A stretch of DNA of 64,000 nt from Escherichia coli (GCF_024502345.1 NZ_JALDNN010000001.1); one strand, 5' to 3'; shown: positions 1,907-60,384, counted from the first letter of the stretch. Notes: generated by a model not told the origin, from the sequence alone. Program-made: numbers and translations.

Positions 1907-2836
1907 TTACTTCTCTTTCCCGCGCCCGTGCATCTCCTGAAACAATTTACCGACCTCAACAAAATAATCCGTCAGCGAGTTGATCACGACCTGTACCTTC
2001 AGCGGCAGCTTATCTTTTTCGGTATATAACGCATAAACCGGGCGTGGATCTGACTGATAACGCGGCAGCAGGATCTCCAGCTCCCCACGATTGATCTCGT
2101 TGATCACCCACATCAGCGGCACGTAGGCGATCCCGGCACCCGCCGTTAGCCAGCGCACCAGCGTCATCGGATCATTAGTCACAAATCTCCCTTGCGGGAT
2201 CAGGCGAGTCGAGATCCCTTCCGGTGCGATCAGTTCAAATTCATTGTCGGGCCGCACGCTGTATTCAAGCCATGAATGGCTACTTAAATCGGCGGGTTTT
2301 TCCGGTATGCCGTATTGTGTGAGATAGCTTTTCGCGGCGCACACCACCATTGGCATCGCGCCAAGACGGCGGGAAAACAGGCTGGAATCCTGCAACGCGC
2401 CGACGCGGATCACCACATCCAGACCGTCGGCAATCAGGTCGGGGGCTGGAATTCCGGTAACCAGATTGACGCTCAAACCTGGGTATTCTTTCAGCATTTT
2501 TGCTGTCAGCCCGGCGAGAACATTTTGTGCCATAGTTGAAGAACAGCCAATGCGTAGCGTCCCGATGGGGGTGTTATTGAAGGCATACAGTTGCTCATGA
2601 ACATCCTGCACTTCATGAAGCATCCGACGGCAGCCCTGGTAGTAAATTCTGCCGGCTTCGGTCAGGCCAATGCTGCGTGTGCTACGGTTTAACAGCTTTA
2701 CCTGCAACTCATCTTCCAGTTTTGACACCGTCTGACTGATGGACGAAACGCTCATCTGTAGCTGTCTGGCGGCGGCGGTAAAAGAGCCAAATTCAACTAC
2801 TTTGGCAAACACCGACATGCGTTTTAGTCGTTCCAT
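1907..2836 (-). CDS. aaeR: LysR-type transcriptional activator of aaeXAB
   Basis: ORF track 309 aa with N-terminal LysR HTH (MSVFAKVVEFGSFTAAARQLQMSVSSISQ); divergent from aaeXAB. Confidence 0.93.
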   Translation of the reverse strand: MERLKRMSVFAKVVEFGSFTAAARQLQMSVSSISQTVSKLEDELQVKLLNRSTRSIGLTEAGRIYYQGCRRMLHEVQDVHEQLYAFNNTPIGTLRIGCSSTMAQNVLAGLTAKMLKEYPGLSVNLVTGIPAPDLIADGLDVVIRVGALQDSSLFSRRLGAMPMVVCAAKSYLTQYGIPEKPADLSSHSWLEYSVRPDNEFELIAPEGISTRLIPQGRFVTNDPMTLVRWLTAGAGIAYVPLMWVINEINRGELEILLPRYQSDPRPVYALYTEKDKLPLKVQVVINSLTDYFVEVGKLFQEMHGRGKEK

Positions 2837-3018
2837 TATTCACTCTGACTTAAAAGTGATTTAGATCACATAATATAGATAACAGCATAACAGTTACGCT
2901 AATATATTAAATATCAATCTACAGCAATGTTGCTCTCGCCCGGCTTTCCATGCCCTTCTCTGCGGCGACAGATGCTGAAAATAATAACGCCTGCTCTCTC
3001 TATACAACCAAGGTCAAC

Positions 3019-3222
3019 ATGAGTCTGTTTCCCGTTATCGTGGTGTTTGGGCTGTCCTTCCCACCGATATTTTTTGAATTGCTTTTATCACTGGCGATTT
3101 TCTGGCTGGTGCGCCGGGTACTTGTGCCAACAGGTATCTACGACTTTGTCTGGCATCCGGCGTTGTTCAACACCGCGCTCTATTGCTGCTTGTTTTATTT
3201 GATATCGCGACTGTTCGTTTGA
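3019..3222 (+). CDS. aaeX: AaeX small membrane protein
   Basis: 67-aa product [14 protein letters not shown]...; ATG at 3019 chosen over the longer track ORF starting at 2950. Confidence 0.85.
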
Positions 3223-3229
3223 GGTTGAA

Positions 3230-4162
3230 GTGAAAACACTAATAAGAAAATTCTCCCGTACGGCCATCACGGTCGTATTAGTCATTCTGGCCTTCATCGC
3301 AATTTTTAATGCCTGGGTCTATTACACCGAATCCCCCTGGACGCGTGACGCGCGCTTTAGCGCTGACGTCGTTGCGATCGCGCCGGACGTTTCTGGACTC
3401 ATTACCCAGGTGAATGTTCATGATAACCAGCTGGTGAAAAAAGGACAGATACTGTTCACCATCGACCAGCCGCGCTATCAAAAGGCGCTTGAGGAAGCGC
3501 AAGCCGATGTTGCTTATTATCAGGTACTGGCACAGGAGAAACGCCAGGAGGCCGGACGTCGTAACCGTCTCGGTGTGCAGGCGATGTCTCGCGAAGAGAT
3601 CGACCAGGCTAACAACGTACTACAAACGGTTCTGCATCAGTTAGCGAAAGCGCAGGCGACCCGCGATCTGGCAAAACTGGATCTTGAACGCACGGTGATC
3701 CGCGCGCCAGCAGATGGCTGGGTGACCAACCTCAACGTCTATACCGGTGAGTTTATTACTCGAGGATCAACGGCGGTTGCGCTGGTGAAACAGAACTCCT
3801 TCTATGTACTGGCCTATATGGAAGAAACTAAGCTGGAAGGGGTGCGTCCGGGGTATCGTGCAGAGATCACGCCGCTTGGCAGTAACAAAGTGCTGAAAGG
3901 GACTGTTGATAGTGTTGCCGCTGGGGTCACCAACGCCAGCAGCACGCGTGACGACAAAGGGATGGCGACCATCGACTCTAACCTTGAATGGGTGCGTTTG
4001 GCGCAACGTGTTCCGGTTCGTATTCGTCTCGACAACCAGCAAGAGAACATCTGGCCTGCGGGCACCACTGCTACAGTGGTGGTCACTGGCAAACAAGATC
4101 GCGACGAAAGCCAGGATTCGTTCTTCCGTAAAATGGCCCATCGCCTGCGTGAGTTTGGTTAA
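3230..4162 (+). CDS. aaeA: p-hydroxybenzoic acid efflux pump, membrane fusion subunit
   Basis: ORF track 310 aa; GTG start at 3230; N-terminal TM segment then HlyD-like coiled coil. Confidence 0.92.
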
Positions 4163-4167
4163 TCACG

Positions 4168-6135
4168 ATGGGTATTTTCTCCATTGCTAACCAACATATT
4201 CGCTTTGCGGTAAAACTGGCGACCGCCATTGTACTGGCGCTGTTTGTTGGCTTTCACTTCCAGCTGGAAACGCCACGCTGGGCGGTACTGACAGCGGCGA
4301 TTGTTGCCGCCGGTCCGGCCTTTGCTGCGGGAGGTGAACCGTATTCTGGCGCTATTCGCTATCGTGGCTTTTTGCGCATCATCGGCACATTTATTGGCTG
4401 TATTGCCGGACTGGTGATCATCATTGCGATGATCCGCGCACCATTATTGATGATTCTGGTGTGCTGTATCTGGGCTGGTTTTTGTACCTGGATATCCTCG
4501 CTGGTACGAATAGAAAACTCGTACGCGTGGGGGCTGGCCGGTTATACCGCGCTGATCATTGTGATCACCATTCAGCCGGAACCATTGCTTACGCCGCAGT
4601 TTGCCGTCGAACGTTGTAGCGAGATCGTTATCGGTATTGTGTGTGCGATTATGGCGGATTTGCTCTTTTCTCCGCGATCGATCAAACAAGAAGTGGCTCG
4701 AGAGCTGGAAAGTTTGCTGGTCGCGCAATATCAATTAATGCAACTCTGTATCAAGCATGGCGATGGTGAAGTTGTCGATAAAGCCTGGGGCGACCTGGTG
4801 CGACGCACCACGGCGCTACAAGGCATGCGCAGCAACCTGAATATGGAATCTTCCCGCTGGGCGCGGGCCAATCGACGTTTAAAAGCGATCAATACGCTAT
4901 CGCTGACGCTGATTACCCAATCCTGCGAAACTTATCTTATTCAGAATACGCGCCCGGAATTGATCACTGATACTTTCCGCGAATTTTTTGACACGCCGGT
5001 AGAAACCGCGCAGGACGTCCACAAGCAGCTCAAACGCCTGCGGAGAGTTATCGCCTGGACCGGGGAACGGGAAACGCCTGTCACCATTTATAGCTGGGTC
5101 GCGGCGGCAACGCGTTATCAGCTTCTCAAGCGCGGCGTTATCAGTAACACAAAAATCAACGCCACCGAAGAAGAGATCCTGCAAGGCGAACCGGAAGTAA
5201 AAGTAGAGTCAGCCGAACGTCATCATGCAATGGTTAACTTCTGGCGAACCACACTTTCCTGCATTCTGGGCACGCTTTTCTGGCTGTGGACGGGCTGGAC
5301 TTCCGGCAGTGGTGCAATGGTGATGATTGCGGTCGTGACGTCACTGGCAATGCGTTTGCCGAATCCACGCATGGTGGCGATCGACTTCATCTATGGGACG
5401 CTGGCCGCGCTGCCGTTAGGGCTGCTCTACTTTTTGGTGATTATCCCTAATACCCAACAGAGCATGTTGCTGCTGTGTATTAGCCTGGCAGTGCTGGGAT
5501 TCTTCCTCGGTATAGAAGTACAGAAACGGCGACTGGGCTCGATGGGGGCACTGGCCAGCACCATAAATATTATCGTGCTGGATAACCCGATGACTTTCCA
5601 TTTCAGTCAGTTTCTCGACAGCGCATTAGGGCAAATCGTCGGCTGTGTGCTCGCGTTCACCGTTATTTTGCTGGTGCGGGATAAATCGCGCGACAGGACC
5701 GGACGTGTACTGCTTAATCAGTTTGTTTCTGCCGCTGTTTCCGCGATGACTACCAATGTGGCACGTCGTAAAGAGAACCACCTCCCGGCACTTTATCAGC
5801 AGCTGTTTTTGCTGATGAATAAGTTCCCAGGGGATTTGCCGAAATTTCGCCTGGCGCTGACGATGATTATCGCGCACCAGCGCCTGCGTGATGCGCCGAT
5901 CCCGGTTAACGAGGATTTATCGGCGTTTCACCGACAAATGCGCCGCACAGCAGACCATGTGATATCTGCCCGTAGCGATGATAAACGTCGTCGGTACTTT
6001 GGCCAGTTGCTGGAAGAACTGGAAATCTACCAGGAAAAGCTACGCATCTGGCAAGCGCCACCGCAGGTGACGGAACCGGTTCATCGGCTGGCGGGGATGC
6101 TCCATAAGTATCAACATGCGTTGACCGATAGTTAG
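4168..6135 (+). CDS. aaeB: p-hydroxybenzoic acid efflux pump, inner membrane subunit
   Basis: ORF track 655 aa, polytopic membrane protein, directly downstream of aaeA. Confidence 0.93.
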
Positions 6136-6138
6136 GTC

Positions 6139-6168
6139 AAAACCGACGCCAAAAGTGTCGGTTTTTTC
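6139..6168 (+). terminator. Rho-independent terminator after aaeB
   Basis: Stem accgac/gtcggt followed by T6. Confidence 0.6.
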
Positions 6169-6226
6169 ATGGCTATACTTAGCGATGCACGGCAGAACTC
6201 GCCGCGAAACGTGACGGTGGCAACAG

Positions 6227-6499
6227 ATGAATATTTATACCTTTGATTTTGATGAGATTGAGAGTCAGGAGGATTTTTATCGTGACTTTAGCCAAACCTT
6301 TGGTCTGGCGAAAGATAAGGTACGCGATCTCGACTCACTATGGGATGTGTTAATGAACGATGTCCTGCCGCTACCACTTGAGATTGAATTTGTTCATCTG
6401 GGAGAGAAAACGCGTCGCCGTTTTGGCGCGTTAATATTGCTGTTTGATGAGGCAGAGGAAGAGCTGGAAGGGCATTTGCGTTTTAATGTTCGTCATTAG
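6227..6499 (+). CDS. yhcO: barstar-like ribonuclease inhibitor YhcO
   Basis: ORF track 90 aa, [21 protein letters not shown]...; barstar-like fold protein at this locus in E. coli. Confidence 0.85.
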
Positions 6500-6500
6500 C

Positions 6501-6529
6501 GCAAAAAAAAGCCCCCGAACCGGGGGCAA
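6501..6529 (-). terminator. Rho-independent terminator of yhcN (hairpin shared with the yhcO 3' end)
   Basis: gcccccgaaccgggggc hairpin at 6511..6527 with an A8 run on the plus strand, giving U8 after the hairpin on the minus strand. Confidence 0.7.
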
Positions 6530-6554
6530 TATCGTCGGACAAGACGATGAGGGT

Positions 6555-6818
6555 TTATTTGTACAGTTCAGCCGTAGCGTGCCAGGTGTCACCGCTACGA
6601 GCTTCAGTAATCTGGTAGGCCGTTGCGCCTTTCTCTTCCGCTTTTTTGTTCAGCATTTCACGCATATCCATTGGCGAAGACGCCACACCACTTACGGATA
6701 CGGTCCCGATTGCTTCACGATTTTGTGCTTGTGCAGCATCAATGGAGTCGGCAGCGAATGCACCGAAAGAGAGAACAGAAAGTACGCTTAATGCAGCAAC
6801 AGTGGTTTTGATTTTCAT
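6555..6818 (-). CDS. yhcN: DUF1471 periplasmic stress-induced protein YhcN
   Basis: 87 aa with signal peptide MKIKTTVAALSVLSVLSFGAFA; ATG at 6818 with a GAGG Shine-Dalgarno, preferred to the longer track ORF. Confidence 0.85.
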   Translation of the reverse strand: MKIKTTVAALSVLSVLSFGAFAADSIDAAQAQNREAIGTVSVSGVASSPMDMREMLNKKAEEKGATAYQITEARSGDTWHATAELYK

Positions 6819-7182
6819 GATTTTTACCTCGACATAATCTTTTAGCTGGGCCTTTGTTTCGTGACCCATATCACAAAATCAAGTATACACTAATTATTGA
6901 GCTAATTAATACCGCGCTAACTGTTTCAGTTGATACTAAGTGTTAAAAATGTGAATTTTAATAACAAAAAAGTATTAAAAACACGGTTATTTATTATAAA
7001 TACCAGTTTTTTCAATCAGATAATGAATTTTGCATAATGTGCTTTTTTTACCGTATGTATTCACTATGTGAATGATATGTCGCGGTAAAACGCACTATTC
7101 GTTAAATGAATCGCAGGGGAAAGCAGGGGATTGAGAGGGATAAGCAACATTTTCCCCGCCGCCAGAAGCGACGGGGCAGAGA

Positions 7183-16118: not shown

Positions 16119-17467
16119 TTAATAAAATAGCGTGATTGTGGCAATCATATTCACCACGAAACCGACTGCCATGGGGATCGCTGTCCGCTTCACCACCGCA
16201 AAAGGCGAAACGCCTGCAATTCCTGACGTAACGACTACCACCGCAGTAATCGGCGAAACCGCGCGCGCTAGCGTCGTGGCAAAATGCATCGGCATAATCA
16301 TTACAACCGCTGGTACATGTAGTCCGGCTGCGATATTCGGAATAAGACTGGCAAATGACATAAACGGCGCATTGCCAGAGCCCATCACAATGGCACAAAT
16401 GGCAATGACCAGCGCCATAATAATCATCACGCCAATACCGCCCAGACCAGAATGCTCCGCACCCCTGATAACCGCATCGACAGTGCCAATCGTCGTTAAG
16501 CCTTTCGCAAATATTTCACCCGCGACCACCAGCGTTACGACGTTGGCAAACTGCGTACCCATGCCGTCAAAAAACGCCTGCACATCGTCCATTGTTTCGC
16601 GCAAGTTATGCTTGCGGAAGAACTCAACAAACATCGTCACCGTCAAACTCAGTAACATCACCACCACCAGATGCAGTTCTGACTGCATCAGCCCGATGTG
16701 GGCAAGGAATAGCGAGCCGAGCATCAGGATTAACGGCATCACAGGTAAAATGGCGTAATAGAGCGGCGGGACATTATCGAGAGCTTTTTGCTCTGCCTGT
16801 TCGTGATTGATATTTTTATCTTTTTTGTCAAAAGCGCGTTGCACGAAAAAGTGGGAGATCGCCACCGAGATAATGACGCAAGAGGCGACCGGAAGCTGGT
16901 AGTGGAAGAAGTAAGTGGCAATTTTCATTCCCGCGACCTGGGCTGCAAAAATGGAGTTCGTTTCCAGAATCCCCCACTCAATGGACATTGTGGTTGCGAT
17001 AACCGCCACCGCAGAGAGACGGCTTACTCCCAGACTCACCAGTGTCGGAAATAAGGTGACCATCAGCAACATACCCAGGCCGGAGGCGCTGGTAATAAAC
17101 TGCGCCATGATTTGGCCGATGACGTAAGTTGCCGACAGAATAATATACGGCGAGCGAATGAGTTTTAACGGGCGGCTTAACAAGCTCACCATCGCGCGAC
17201 TGGCTCCTGTGCGCTCCATGTAGCGGGCATAACCGCCCACCGCCATAATCGACAGCCCCAATCCGGCAATGCGGTTGGACAGCATGCGCAGGATTTCATT
17301 ATAAATATCGACGATCAAGTAGCCGCTGCTTTTGGCGGGATCGAGTACACCACCGAACCCTAACCAGACACCGCACATCATCAGGAAGATACCTGCGGCA
17401 GCCAGCACCACCTGAGGTTTGTAGTTTTTCAGGATCAAATAGCCCATCGTAATTAATACGATGACAG
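16119..17467 (-). pseudogene. dcuD: C4-dicarboxylate transporter DcuD with its 5' end (start codon plus about 7 codons) displaced by IS1
   Basis: ORF track 442 aa from an internal Met; the frame stays open upstream (VIVLIT) straight into the IS1 left end at 17468; native DcuD as I recall it is 455 aa starting MFGIIIS. Confidence 0.75.
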
Positions 17468-17490
17468 GGTGATGCTGCCAACTTACTGAT
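17468..17490. repeat. IS1 left terminal inverted repeat
   Basis: 23-bp imperfect inverted repeat of 18213..18235. Confidence 0.9.
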
Positions 17491-17522
17491 TTAGTGTATG
17501 ATGGTGTTTTTGAGGTGCTCCA

Positions 17523-17798
17523 GTGGCTTCTGTTTCTATCAGCTGTCCCTCCTGTTCAGCTACTGACGGGGTGGTGCGTAACGGCAAAAGCACCGCCGGA
17601 CATCAGCGCTATCTCTGCTCTCACTGCCGTAAAACATGGCAACTGCAGTTCACTTACACCGCTTCTCAACCCGGTACGCACCAGAAAATCATTGATATGG
17701 CCATGAATGGCGTTGGATGCCGGGCAACCGCCCGCATTATGGGCGTTGGCCTCAACACGATTTTCCGCCATTTAAAAAACTCAGGCCGCAGTCGGTAA
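17523..17798 (+). CDS. insA: IS1 InsA
   Basis: ORF track 91 aa [24 protein letters not shown]..., matches InsA. Confidence 0.97.
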
Positions 17799-18220
17799 CC
17801 TCGCGCATACAGCCGGGCAGTGACGTCATCGTCTGCGCGGAAATGGACGAACAGTGGGGATACGTCGGGGCTAAATCGCGCCAGCGCTGGCTGTTTTACG
17901 CGTATGACAGGCTCCGGAAGACGGTTGTTGCGCACGTATTCGGTGAACGCACTATGGCGACGCTGGGGCGTCTTATGAGCCTGCTGTCACCCTTTGACGT
18001 GGTGATATGGATGACGGATGGCTGGCCGCTGTATGAATCCCGCCTGAAGGGAAAGCTGCACGTAATCAGCAAGCGATATACGCAGCGAATTGAGCGGCAT
18101 AACCTGAATCTGAGGCAGCACCTGGCACGGCTGGGACGGAAGTCGCTGTCGTTCTCAAAATCGGTGGAGCTGCATGACAAAGTCATCGGGCATTATCTGA
18201 ACATAAAACACTATCAATAA
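17717..18220 (+). CDS. insB: IS1 InsB (made as InsAB' transposase after a -1 frameshift)
   Basis: ORF track 167 aa [21 protein letters not shown]..., in the -1 frame relative to insA. Confidence 0.95.
17774..17780 (+). promoter_or_regulatory. IS1 programmed -1 ribosomal frameshift site (A6C)
   Basis: AAAAAAC heptamer in the insA/insB overlap. Confidence 0.8.
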
Positions 18221-18235
18221 GTTGGAGTCATTACC
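18213..18235. repeat. IS1 right terminal inverted repeat
   Basis: 23-bp imperfect inverted repeat; contains the insB stop codon. Confidence 0.9.
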
Positions 18236-18315
18236 AGAAAACCCTGCCATTTTCCCCTACTTTCAATCCTGTGATAGGATGTCACTGATGATGTTAATCA
18301 CACTGACCTTACAGA

Positions 18316-19107
18316 ATGGGCCTTATGAACGCATTTGATTCGCAAACCGAAGATTCTTCACCTGCAATTGGTCGCAACTTGCGTAGCCGCCCGCTGGCGC
18401 GTAAAAAACTCTCCGAAATGGTGGAAGAAGAGCTGGAACAGATGATCCGCCGTCGTGAATTTGGCGAAGGTGAACAATTACCGTCTGAACGCGAACTGAT
18501 GGCGTTCTTTAACGTTGGGCGTCCTTCGGTGCGTGAAGCGCTGGCAGCGTTAAAACGCAAAGGTCTGGTGCAAATAAACAACGGCGAACGTGCCCGCGTC
18601 TCACGTCCTTCTGCGGACACCATCATCGGCGAGCTTTCCGGCATGGCGAAAGATTTCCTTTCTCATCCTGGTGGGATTGCCCATTTCGAACAATTACGTC
18701 TGTTCTTTGAATCCAGCCTGGTGCGCTATGCGGCTGAACACGCCACCGATGAGCAAATCGATTTGCTGGCAAAAGCACTGGAAATCAACAGTCAGTCGCT
18801 GGATAACAACGCGGCATTCATTCGCTCAGACGTTGATTTCCACCGCGTGCTGGCGGAGATCCCAGGTAACCCAATCTTCATGGCGATCCACGTTGCCCTG
18901 CTCGACTGGCTGATCGCCGCACGTCCAACCGTGGCTGATCAGGCTCTGCACGAGCATAACAACGTTAGCTATCAACAGCATATTGCGATCGTTGACGCGA
19001 TCCGCCGCCACGATCCTGACGAAGCCGATCGTGCGTTGCAATCGCATCTCAACAGCGTCTCTGCTACCTGGCACGCCTTCGGTCAGACCACCAACAAAAA
19101 GAAATAA
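18316..19107 (+). CDS. nanR: sialic acid regulon repressor NanR (GntR family)
   Basis: ORF track 263 aa; only 80 bp separates its ATG from the IS1 right end. Confidence 0.94.
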
Positions 19108-23791: not shown

Positions 23792-23866
23792 ATTTATTAG
23801 ATCAGGCGTGACCTGACCCATCTTTGGCACAGAGCCAAACCTGAACTGACGGACCGCTCTGTGCCA

Positions 23867-24172
23867 TTACCTGACGTTGTATTCTTTTATGTTAACACCC
23901 TTGATACTGTATATACCTGTCCGCTTAATTCGCTTGCCCTTTTTATTCGTAATAGTTGCTGTAAGTGTACTGCAGCGAATGGAATGACGTTCATCAATCA
24001 CCAGCCGAATTGCTTCTGAAGCATCTTCCACCTCTAGAAGGTCGTGAGTCTTATTTAAGCCGAATGGAACAAGGTGGAAGGCAGTTTTTCCTGATGATTT
24101 TCTGGTTATTTTTACTGGATACAACACATCACCACTTTTATGGATTAATTCAAGCTGTTCAATGTAAATCAT
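23867..24172 (-). CDS. hypothetical small basic protein (101 aa from the ATG at 24172), no family recognised
   Basis: ATG preceded by AAGGAAAG Shine-Dalgarno, 16 nt after the stop of the upstream YhcG-like ORF; AT-rich; the track's 113-aa version uses a TTG start. Confidence 0.4.
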   Translation of the reverse strand: MIYIEQLELIHKSGDVLYPVKITRKSSGKTAFHLVPFGLNKTHDLLEVEDASEAIRLVIDERHSIRCSTLTATITNKKGKRIKRTGIYSIKGVNIKEYNVR

Positions 24173-24188
24173 GGCAACTTTCCTTCGT

Positions 24189-24668
24189 TTATTTGCATGA
24201 ATATACAAACCGAAAATAGGAGATGCAATACAAAAGCTGTGGAAATATCAAACAGCCTCTCAATTTGGCAGACAGCGTCTGCCAAATCTTTGCCGATGGG
24301 AATTCTGCAGATGGTGTCTGCGGAATTCCCAATGGTGTTAATTCGCCAGACACTGTCTGGCGAATTTCAACATGTTGAAAAAAGAGGTAAAAAAGCCTCA
24401 TTTGGCGTAAGTTTTTTGCAGAGAACCCACGCTTATACCTTAGACTTAAATCCTTTGATAGTCGCTTGATTAGCTGCGCACCATACGCAGCCCTTGCCTC
24501 GCCACCTTGTTCAAATTCGACAATTCGTCGGCCAATTTCCCAGTATGTCGCGGTCATCAGCGCGTTAACGCTACGTACCGTTTCCGTCCGGACGCTATCG
24601 ACCAGGTGAATAATATCGTCGTGGATTTGCTGGTAGCCTGTTGAGGTTCTCTCTGAGAGCGATTCCAT
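24189..24668 (-). CDS. yhcG: YhcG/DUF1016-family N-terminal domain ORF (159 aa); either a truncated yhcG remnant or a short stand-alone variant
   Basis: First ~96 aa (ATYWEIGRRIVEFEQGGEARAAYGAQLIKRLSKDLSLRYKRGFSAKNLRQMRLFYLFF) look like the DUF1016 N-terminal domain; then three 13-14-codon repeats and a hydrophobic tail; too short for the 375-aa K-12 YhcG. Confidence 0.5.
   Translation of the reverse strand: MESLSERTSTGYQQIHDDIIHLVDSVRTETVRSVNALMTATYWEIGRRIVEFEQGGEARAAYGAQLIKRLSKDLSLRYKRGFSAKNLRQMRLFYLFFQHVEIRQTVSGELTPLGIPQTPSAEFPSAKIWQTLSAKLRGCLIFPQLLYCISYFRFVYSCK
24263..24366. repeat. array of three palindromic or quasi-palindromic units with centres 39 bp apart
   Basis: atttggcagacagcgtctgccaaat / gggaattctgcag..ctgcggaattccc / aattcgccagacactgtctggcgaatt, all built on GCCAGAC/GTCTGGC-type arms. 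Confidence 0.7.
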
Positions 24669-24851
24669 TATCTGTCCCTTTATATGGCGCTGCGTTGAAT
24701 AATGGAATCAGCTATACGCCGGGCATCTACCGGTAACAATCCAGATGAGCGTATTACATTGGTTTTCTTCAGATTATGCGAGGCGCTTTCCAGAAAGAAA
24801 GGAGAATTTCAGCGCCGACTCTTTTCTGAGGAGGCGGCGCTGGGACAGAGC

Positions 24852-26282
<1,431 letters not shown>

Positions 26283-60355: not shown

Positions 60356-60384
60356 AACCCCGGGGCGTGCTCCGGGGTTTTTTC
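60356..60384 (+). terminator. Rho-independent terminator after ftsH
   Basis: ccccggggcgtgctccgggg hairpin followed by T7. Confidence 0.75.

Follow-up and report, generated by a model that had tools for sequence, protein, structure and literature searches.

A single IS1 in place of 318 bp between dcuD and nanR of Escherichia coli: a probable adjacent deletion within a series of nested IS1 alleles

Reif and Saedler reportedly described IS1-mediated adjacent deletions in 1975. Intramolecular target-primed transposition of IS1 and Tn9 gives deletions after which the element has no direct repeats (PMC9330008), and the same article cites Turlan & Chandler 1995 for adjacent (replicative) deletions by IS1. 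A stepwise course was described for IS150 in the E. coli long-term evolution experiment, where insertion was followed by an adjacent deletion lacking a target-site duplication (TSD), which was sometimes extended later (PMC11708052). The ends of IS1 can also create fusion promoters (Prentki et al. 1986, as cited in PMC9330008). In a laboratory evolution experiment, IS5 insertions in the dcuD-nanR intergenic region were fixed where up-regulation of nanK was beneficial. We found no literature linking dcuD with IS1.

The locus studied here lies in a 64-kb stretch of E. coli DNA, referred to below as the window. As in the IS1 adjacent deletions, an intact IS1 was kept, the loss begins exactly at one IS end and no duplication is present; the endpoints are variable yet clustered, and the other junction is the same as in the progenitor insertion. 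Unlike the laboratory-selected IS1 deletions, a class defined by transposase dependence and RecA independence, the window carries a natural chromosomal allele that is known here from its sequence. The IS150 case shares with this locus the succession of insertion and deletion, which is paralleled here by the strains QEC11-421 and LR-48 and by EC31 and CFSAN061770. It differs in the IS family and in the extent of the deletions, which here reach about 0.3 kb into a narrow hotspot and not over many kb, with strain TOE3 as the exception. The IS5 case likewise involves a mobile element between dcuD and nanR, under conditions that made reduced repression by NanR advantageous; the element is a different one, and the benefit there was inferred from the experimental design. 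The rearrangement in the window would be the product of an ordinary and well-known IS1 mechanism, and the exact allele appears to be new among the genomes searched.

The interval 17468..18235 of the window (plus strand) is a complete, IS1B-like IS1 of 768 bp with insA-insB' reading toward nanR, and it is the sole IS1 within the window. Identity to annotated IS1A and IS1B copies was 98-99.9%, and the element has the length of about 768 bp and the imperfect terminal inverted repeats of about 23 bp (GGTGATGCTGCC... and GGTAATGACTCC...) that characterize IS1. The left repeat, IRL (GGTGATGCTGCCAACTTACTGAT, 17468..17490, plus strand), is an exact match and holds the IS1's own promoter region; a consensus promoter scan called a promoter-like site, CTGCCA-16-TATGAT, in or near IRL at 17475-17502. 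The right repeat, IRR (18213..18235, plus strand), ends with ...GGAGTCATTACC at 18235 and adjoins native DNA at -80. Negative positions are given relative to the nanR ATG throughout, which places the dcuD ATG at -380. On the plus strand, insA (17523..17798, 91 aa) matched Pfam Zn_ribbon_InsA and HTH_Tnp_IS1, and the insB' frame, the catalytic part of the transposase (17717..18220), matched DDE_Tnp_IS1 with an E value of 2e-78; the Pfam identifiers are PF03811, PF12759 and PF03400. An A6C motif for -1 frameshifting was read from the sequence at 17774-17780 (plus strand). Because insA and insB' are open, three IS1 Pfam domains are present and the A6C motif is in place, the element is predicted to be functional. 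The 8-9 bp target-site duplication that surrounds a simple IS1 insertion is absent.

Alignment of both flanks to the nanR-dcuD region of MG1655 showed that IS1 stands in for 318 bp of the reference (NC_000913.3 3374570-3374887), which comprise dcuD nt 1-19 and 299 of the 379 intergenic bp. The two 9-bp flanks, CGATGACAG at the left end and AGAAAACCC at the right end, are unrelated and form no direct repeat. The left flank (17459..17467, corresponding to -407..-399) is the surviving copy of a target in dcuD codons 5-7 that is used repeatedly in other strains and is called hotspot A below. On the right, exactly 80 bp of native DNA (18236-18315) remain 5' of the nanR ATG at 18316. An earlier sequence-only reading had described a complete 768-bp IS1 at 17468-18235 without a target-site duplication and with at most 80 bp of native DNA before the nanR start. 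The exact IRL and IRR, the intact frames and the exact mapping of the flanks to MG1655 agree with this description, and the value of 80 bp turned out to be exact. The same mapping ruled out that misread flanks had masked a 9-bp repeat.

The dcuD gene (16119..17467, minus strand) is 5'-truncated. Its sequence is native from nt 20 of the CDS, and the promoter, the RBS and codons 1-6 are gone. As the sequence-only reading had stated, the MFGIIIS start of dcuD is missing, with the first 19 nt of the CDS deleted compared to MG1655. The reading had also placed IS1 next to codon 8; the element actually adjoins codon 7 at its second base, and complete codons begin with codon 8. Since MG1655 DcuD begins with MFGIIIS, the window gene is truncated, and a reference protein beginning at MGYLIL was ruled out, as MG1655 DcuD begins with MFGIIIS and matches the DcuC model from position 1. 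The dcuD frame does run without a stop into IS1, as had been noted, and remains open there for 34 codons. The suggestion that this could give a hybrid IS1-DcuD N-terminus failed: there is no ATG, GTG or TTG among the 34 in-frame IS1 codons, which rules out a hybrid protein made from a canonical start codon. The first usable start is thus the native Met14 (17447), from which the longest dcuD ORF extends over 442 aa (16119-17447), and the only product to be expected would be DcuD without residues 1-13.

The Pfam DcuC model was covered from 13 to 460 by the window ORF and from 1 to 460 by MG1655 DcuD, and the full-length match with N-terminus and native start that defines the DcuC family is not present in the window gene. 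Without its promoter, RBS, start codon and 13 N-terminal residues, the window dcuD is most likely non-functional. An equivalent 442-aa ORF in other genomes is labelled by PGAP as an intact DcuC transporter, and such automated annotation of the truncated ORF is misleading. Janausch and Unden are said to have noted in 1999 that expression of dcuD in K-12 had not been reported. Taken alone, the rearrangement would be a routine IS1 scar that inactivates a cryptic transporter gene without a known phenotype.

Similar to the fusion promoters formed at IS1 ends, outward -35-like hexamers are located at promoter distance from native hexamers on both sides of the element, according to our own reading of the sequence. 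At IRL, an outward TTGGCA (minus strand 17481-17476) is found 17 bp from a native TATTAA (17458-17453) toward dcuD, and at IRR, an outward TTGGAG facing nanR is found 17 bp from a native TGCCAT. Neither TTGGCA-17-TATTAA nor TTGGAG-17-TGCCAT was called by the consensus promoter scan. From a fusion promoter at IRL, transcripts would begin near the ATG of Met14, a prediction to which we attach little weight.

The survey covered 5,426 complete E. coli genomes, and the junctions were mapped in 20 loci from other strains. An IS1 end was located exactly at -399 in 20 of the 5,426 genomes. In 20AR0300, GPEC206-621, QEC11-421 and GmM062, IS1 was present as a simple insertion in the same orientation as in the window, with CGATGACAG duplicated (-407..-399) and the intergenic region complete, whereas in FDAARGOS_1282 and Evo1 the duplicated CGATGACAG surrounds an IS1 in the opposite orientation. 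The hotspot A target was used by at least five IS1 variants (IS1A-like, IS1X4 and several mosaics), and the copies were found in at least seven dcuD haplotypes. The occurrence of both orientations in combination with differing IS1 variants and haplotypes argues that hotspot A is a true insertion hotspot that was hit many times independently.

A hairpin scan identified a 7-bp inverted repeat, CATCGTA-N5-TACGATG, in the 5' coding end of dcuD (17445..17463, MG1655 -421..-403). The hotspot A target is positioned on the right arm of this repeat, and a simple insertion in strain 102651 has its target, AGCCCATCG (-425..-417), on the left arm, mirror-symmetric to CGATGACAG. The repeat may define hotspot A. 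A third IS1 target in the vicinity was found in AH01 at -371..-363. Other candidate causes of IS1 targeting were rejected: the IHF consensus WATCAANNNNTTR had no match in the 470-bp region, and the native IS1-end-like sequence GGTAATGATGAG at -100 showed 8/12 identity to either inverted repeat, too weak for an attractor.

A second cluster of IS1 ends, hotspot B, spans -61..-115 upstream of nanR. Simple insertions were mapped there at -115..-107 in EC31, at -69..-61 in EP91B and at -79..-72 both in the 042 group, in the opposite orientation, and in K-12 C3026, which carries an IS1A with an 8-bp duplication of GAAAACCC (2257-3024 of its locus). The IS1A in C3026 shows that hotspot B is hit in laboratory lineages as well. 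Megablast had suggested that EP91B and C3026 share the right junction of the window; this was refuted by exact mapping, which resolved the two as the separate insertions at -69..-61 and -79..-72. No IS1 insertion was seen among the mapped loci in the approximately 245 bp of 27%-GC DNA between hotspots A and B.

At least seven alleles, the window's included, keep the -399 junction and have lost DNA rightward from it, with right ends at -76, -79, -80, -82, -85, -94 and, in TOE3, beyond. Taking the window (right end -80) as the reference, IS1 has the same orientation in LR-48 (-82), in FDAARGOS_943 (-94), in QDFD216, MIN9 and 50EVAW (-85, where two IS1 copies enclose 3.5 kb of foreign DNA) and in TOE3 (right end next to gltD, with nanR and the nan operon gone), and the opposite orientation in JX21CE35 (-79) and PRO_A-1443 (-76). 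A mirror case was found in CFSAN061770, where the anchor is at -115 and a leftward deletion extends to -368. The exact -399/-80 allele was absent from the 5,426 E. coli genomes and, in exact junction scans, from species-representative genomes and from metagenome contigs; alleles that differ from it by 2 bp and 14 bp do occur. The sharp twin IS1 hotspots with their recurrent nested deletions offer a clean natural system for the study of IS1 target choice and deletion formation.

Two of the deletion structures have further features of their own. In QDFD216, the locus (1984-7024, with the same spacing in MIN9 and 50EVAW) has IS1 at -399 and at -85, and the foreign DNA of about 3.5 kb contains a phytase-like esterase gene along with remnants of IS66, IS3 and IS5. 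The left IS1 of QDFD216 is chimeric, its 5' 103 bp being those of the resident copy and the rest IS1X2-like, and the flanks are identical to those of QEC11-421 and LR-48. In TOE3 (locus 3301-4650), the IS1 at the dcuD junction is fused to gltD-adjacent DNA, and nanR, nanATEKQ and yhcG are all deleted. The TOE3 allele would represent a much larger deletion from the same dcuD anchor.

A progenitor and a derivative with the same IS copy in the same lineage were seen in two pairs of strains. A comparison between QEC11-421, which has a simple insertion, and LR-48, with the deletion to -82, showed 0/3000 SNPs in the flanks and the same unusual mosaic IS1, with the two copies 2 nt apart. Likewise, EC31, with the simple insertion at -115..-107, and CFSAN061770, with the deletion -368/-115, have identical flanks and an identical IS1. 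Both pairs show a route that leads from an insertion to a one-sided deletion. In the lineage of the window, the only counterpart was FDAARGOS_943 (-94), the closest complete genome at approximately 99.3-99.4% identity, whose IS1 differs at 7 sites. Its flanks showed 0/1300 and 1/1700 SNPs compared to the window, the left junction is shared, and 14 bp more are present on the right. A simple-insertion progenitor of the window's own lineage was not found among the 5,426 complete E. coli genomes.

We consider it probable, with modest confidence, that the window allele arose by intramolecular transposition of IS1, that is, as an adjacent deletion. IS1 would first have inserted in the ordinary way at CGATGACAG in dcuD codons 5-7, with IRL facing the body of dcuD. 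Later, the IRR end would have attacked hotspot B about 320 bp away by intramolecular target-primed replicative transposition, and this event would have removed 327 bp, made up of the 318 native bp and the duplicated 9 bp to the right of IS1. The outcome would be one intact IS1 fused to nanR -80 without a target duplication, and the duplication would be missing in the window because the second copy of CGATGACAG went with the deletion. The order of events and a transpositional rather than homologous chemistry are what we infer here.

The sequence-only reading had ascribed the removal of the dcuD start and of part of the intergenic region to an IS1 adjacent deletion or to recombination between IS1 copies. 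The comparative evidence supported this, since other E. coli carry the progenitor state without the deletion, and a series of alleles combines the same left junction with differing right ends. In the window, one junction is that of the duplicated progenitor insertion, and a contiguous stretch of 318 bp plus one copy of the duplication is missing from the other IS end. Because the -399 junction is constant while the nanR-side junction varies, the dcuD insertion can be regarded as the resident anchor, and such a combination, one end fixed and the other variable, is characteristic of deletions that extend from a resident IS. An adjacent deletion is favored since the IS1 sequence is preserved within the progenitor/derivative pairs, the pattern of a fixed anchor and variable ends recurs, and the spacing never indicates two copies around native DNA.

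The same sequence product is predicted both by an adjacent deletion and by homologous recombination between two IS1 copies. According to the latter, which is a serious though clearly less probable explanation, a first IS1 would have inserted at hotspot A and a second in the same orientation at hotspot B (target AGAAAACCC, -80..-72), and RecA-dependent recombination between the 768-bp direct repeats would then have deleted one IS1 together with the 318 bp. Hotspot B has taken up simple insertions 1-10 bp away from the right junction of the window (at -79..-72, in either orientation, and at -69..-61) and also at -115..-107, which makes a two-IS1 intermediate plausible, although it would be short-lived. 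In addition, the right junction of JX21CE35 (-79) coincides with the simple insertions in 042 and C3026. Against such an intermediate, no genome was seen in which IS1 occupies both sites and native DNA separates the copies: among the genomes with both junctions, the spacing always fitted one IS1 or the 5-kb structure of QDFD216. Moreover, recombination would have required three events (two insertions and a crossover) where two suffice for an adjacent deletion, and the IS1 sequences preserved in the pairs (0 and 2 differences) would have required a second copy of the same variant or an invisible crossover.

The IS1 copies themselves add to the case for recombination, as they are mosaics of differing variants. 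A difference of 1 nt separates the window IS1 from the copies in EC31, CFSAN061770 and JX21CE35, whereas a comparison between the IS1B-like copy of the window and the IS1A-type copy of FDAARGOS_943 showed 7 nt differences at positions 262-444, the same positions that separate IS1A-like from IS1B-like copies. Mosaics were found in LR-48/QEC11-421, in GPEC206-621 and in the left copy of QDFD216, and in six fetched loci in all, with blocks up to approximately 10% divergent (positions 4-157, or 393/487-764) joined to IS1A/B-like remainders. The strong mosaicism of the copies at the locus indicates that IS1 variants often recombine or undergo gene conversion in these lineages. To account for the difference in IS1 between the window and FDAARGOS_943, one has to invoke gene conversion, separate insertions at the hotspot, or recombination, and a recombinant copy would explain it easily. 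With two different second insertions and crossovers within the first 261 bp, both differences between these genomes, the type of IS1 and the right junction, would be accounted for.

An adjacent deletion from hotspot A could also be reversed in its order, with IS1 inserting first at -80..-72 and its IRL end then deleting leftward to hotspot A, by chance or by preference. Leftward deletion does occur at the locus, as in the step from EC31 to CFSAN061770 (anchor -115, end -368), and hotspot A is a preferred target. The junction conserved across the alleles and in FDAARGOS_943 is nevertheless -399, while the nanR side varies, and this marks hotspot A as the anchor and makes the reverse order very unlikely. 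Scarcely credible, finally, is an insertion with deletion in one step and without a prior copy, whether IS1 entered a break, a mechanism proposed for IS5 and IS481, or the deletion was mediated by the IS-excision enhancer (IEE): IS movement without a TSD coupled to rearrangements has been proposed (PMC11708052) and IEE acts on IS1-family elements (PMC9330008), but the left junction matches, nucleotide for nucleotide, a hotspot where ordinary duplicated insertions are the rule, stepwise progenitor/derivative pairs exist, and no IEE gene was visible within the window.

The sialic-acid repressor gene nanR is intact in the window (18316..19107, plus strand) and encodes 263 aa with a T207A substitution compared to K-12. 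nanA and nanT are located 3' of nanR, with nanE, nanK and nanQ further on, and both nanR and nanATEKQ are intact. The remaining 80 bp of native upstream DNA (18236..18315, plus strand) lie within hotspot B. From our own reading of these 80 bp, TGaTAGGAT at 18272-18280 (-44..-36, plus strand) is a candidate extended -10 element. When the retained 80 bp and the ends of IS1 were scanned for consensus promoters, the only one called was that of the IS1 IRL. In MG1655, the scan returned two nanR-directed promoter-like sites at -253..-192, inside the deleted part, and the number of such sites in the MG1655 region was no higher than in shuffled sequence. The part of the literature that was searched gave nothing relevant on an experimentally determined start site or promoter of nanR.

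All IS1 junctions seen in any mapped genome spare at least 69 bp 5' of nanR, which is compatible with a proximal nanR promoter under constraint, without proving one. IS1 in the opposite orientation was found close to nanR in 042, JX21CE35 and PRO_A-1443 (-72/-79, -76), and in these strains NanR is identical to that of K-12. Because the opposite-orientation alleles keep nanR intact, an obligatory dependence of nanR on read-through from insA-insB is somewhat weakened, and with it the suggestion of the sequence-only reading that the nanR promoter may rely on read-out from IS1. If the nanR promoter lies farther 5' than 80 bp, the sialic-acid catabolic and fimbrial-switch regulon would be expressed differently in strains carrying alleles of this kind, with a bearing on gut colonisation.

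The fixed IS5 insertions in the laboratory evolution experiment make a regulatory effect of insertions between dcuD and nanR conceivable. Together with the clustering of the endpoints, they are compatible with recurrent IS1 insertions and deletions ending 61-115 bp 5' of nanR being convergent regulatory mutations. Such mutations would lower or rewire nanR transcription and partly derepress the sialic-acid regulon (nanATEK, nanCMS and fimB control) in gut-adapted E. coli and Shigella. We regard this as doubtful; if true, the window allele would be one form of a natural switch built on IS elements.

Outside the dcuD-nanR region, several differences between the window and other genomes were observed. 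The 470 bp at 23793-24262, between nanQ (yhcH) and a yhcG remnant, did not align to FDAARGOS_943, where 781 bp of yhcG take their place, and contain a minus-strand ORF of 113 aa at 23867-24208. The highest SNP density against FDAARGOS_943 was found in the neighbouring yhcG/gltD region, with 14-31 SNPs per kb. At about 60362-60373, between ftsH and folP, FDAARGOS_943 carries an IS4-like ISEc60 that the window does not have; the alignment blocks at this site overlap by 12 bp, consistent with a target duplication. With respect to the window region at ~24300-25500, K-12 genomes needed approximately 12 kb extra to span the 24-kb query, with the yhcD fimbrial usher among the features, and both the window and FDAARGOS_943 appear to be without this extra segment, which we take to be gltF-yhcADEF, between gltD and yhcG.
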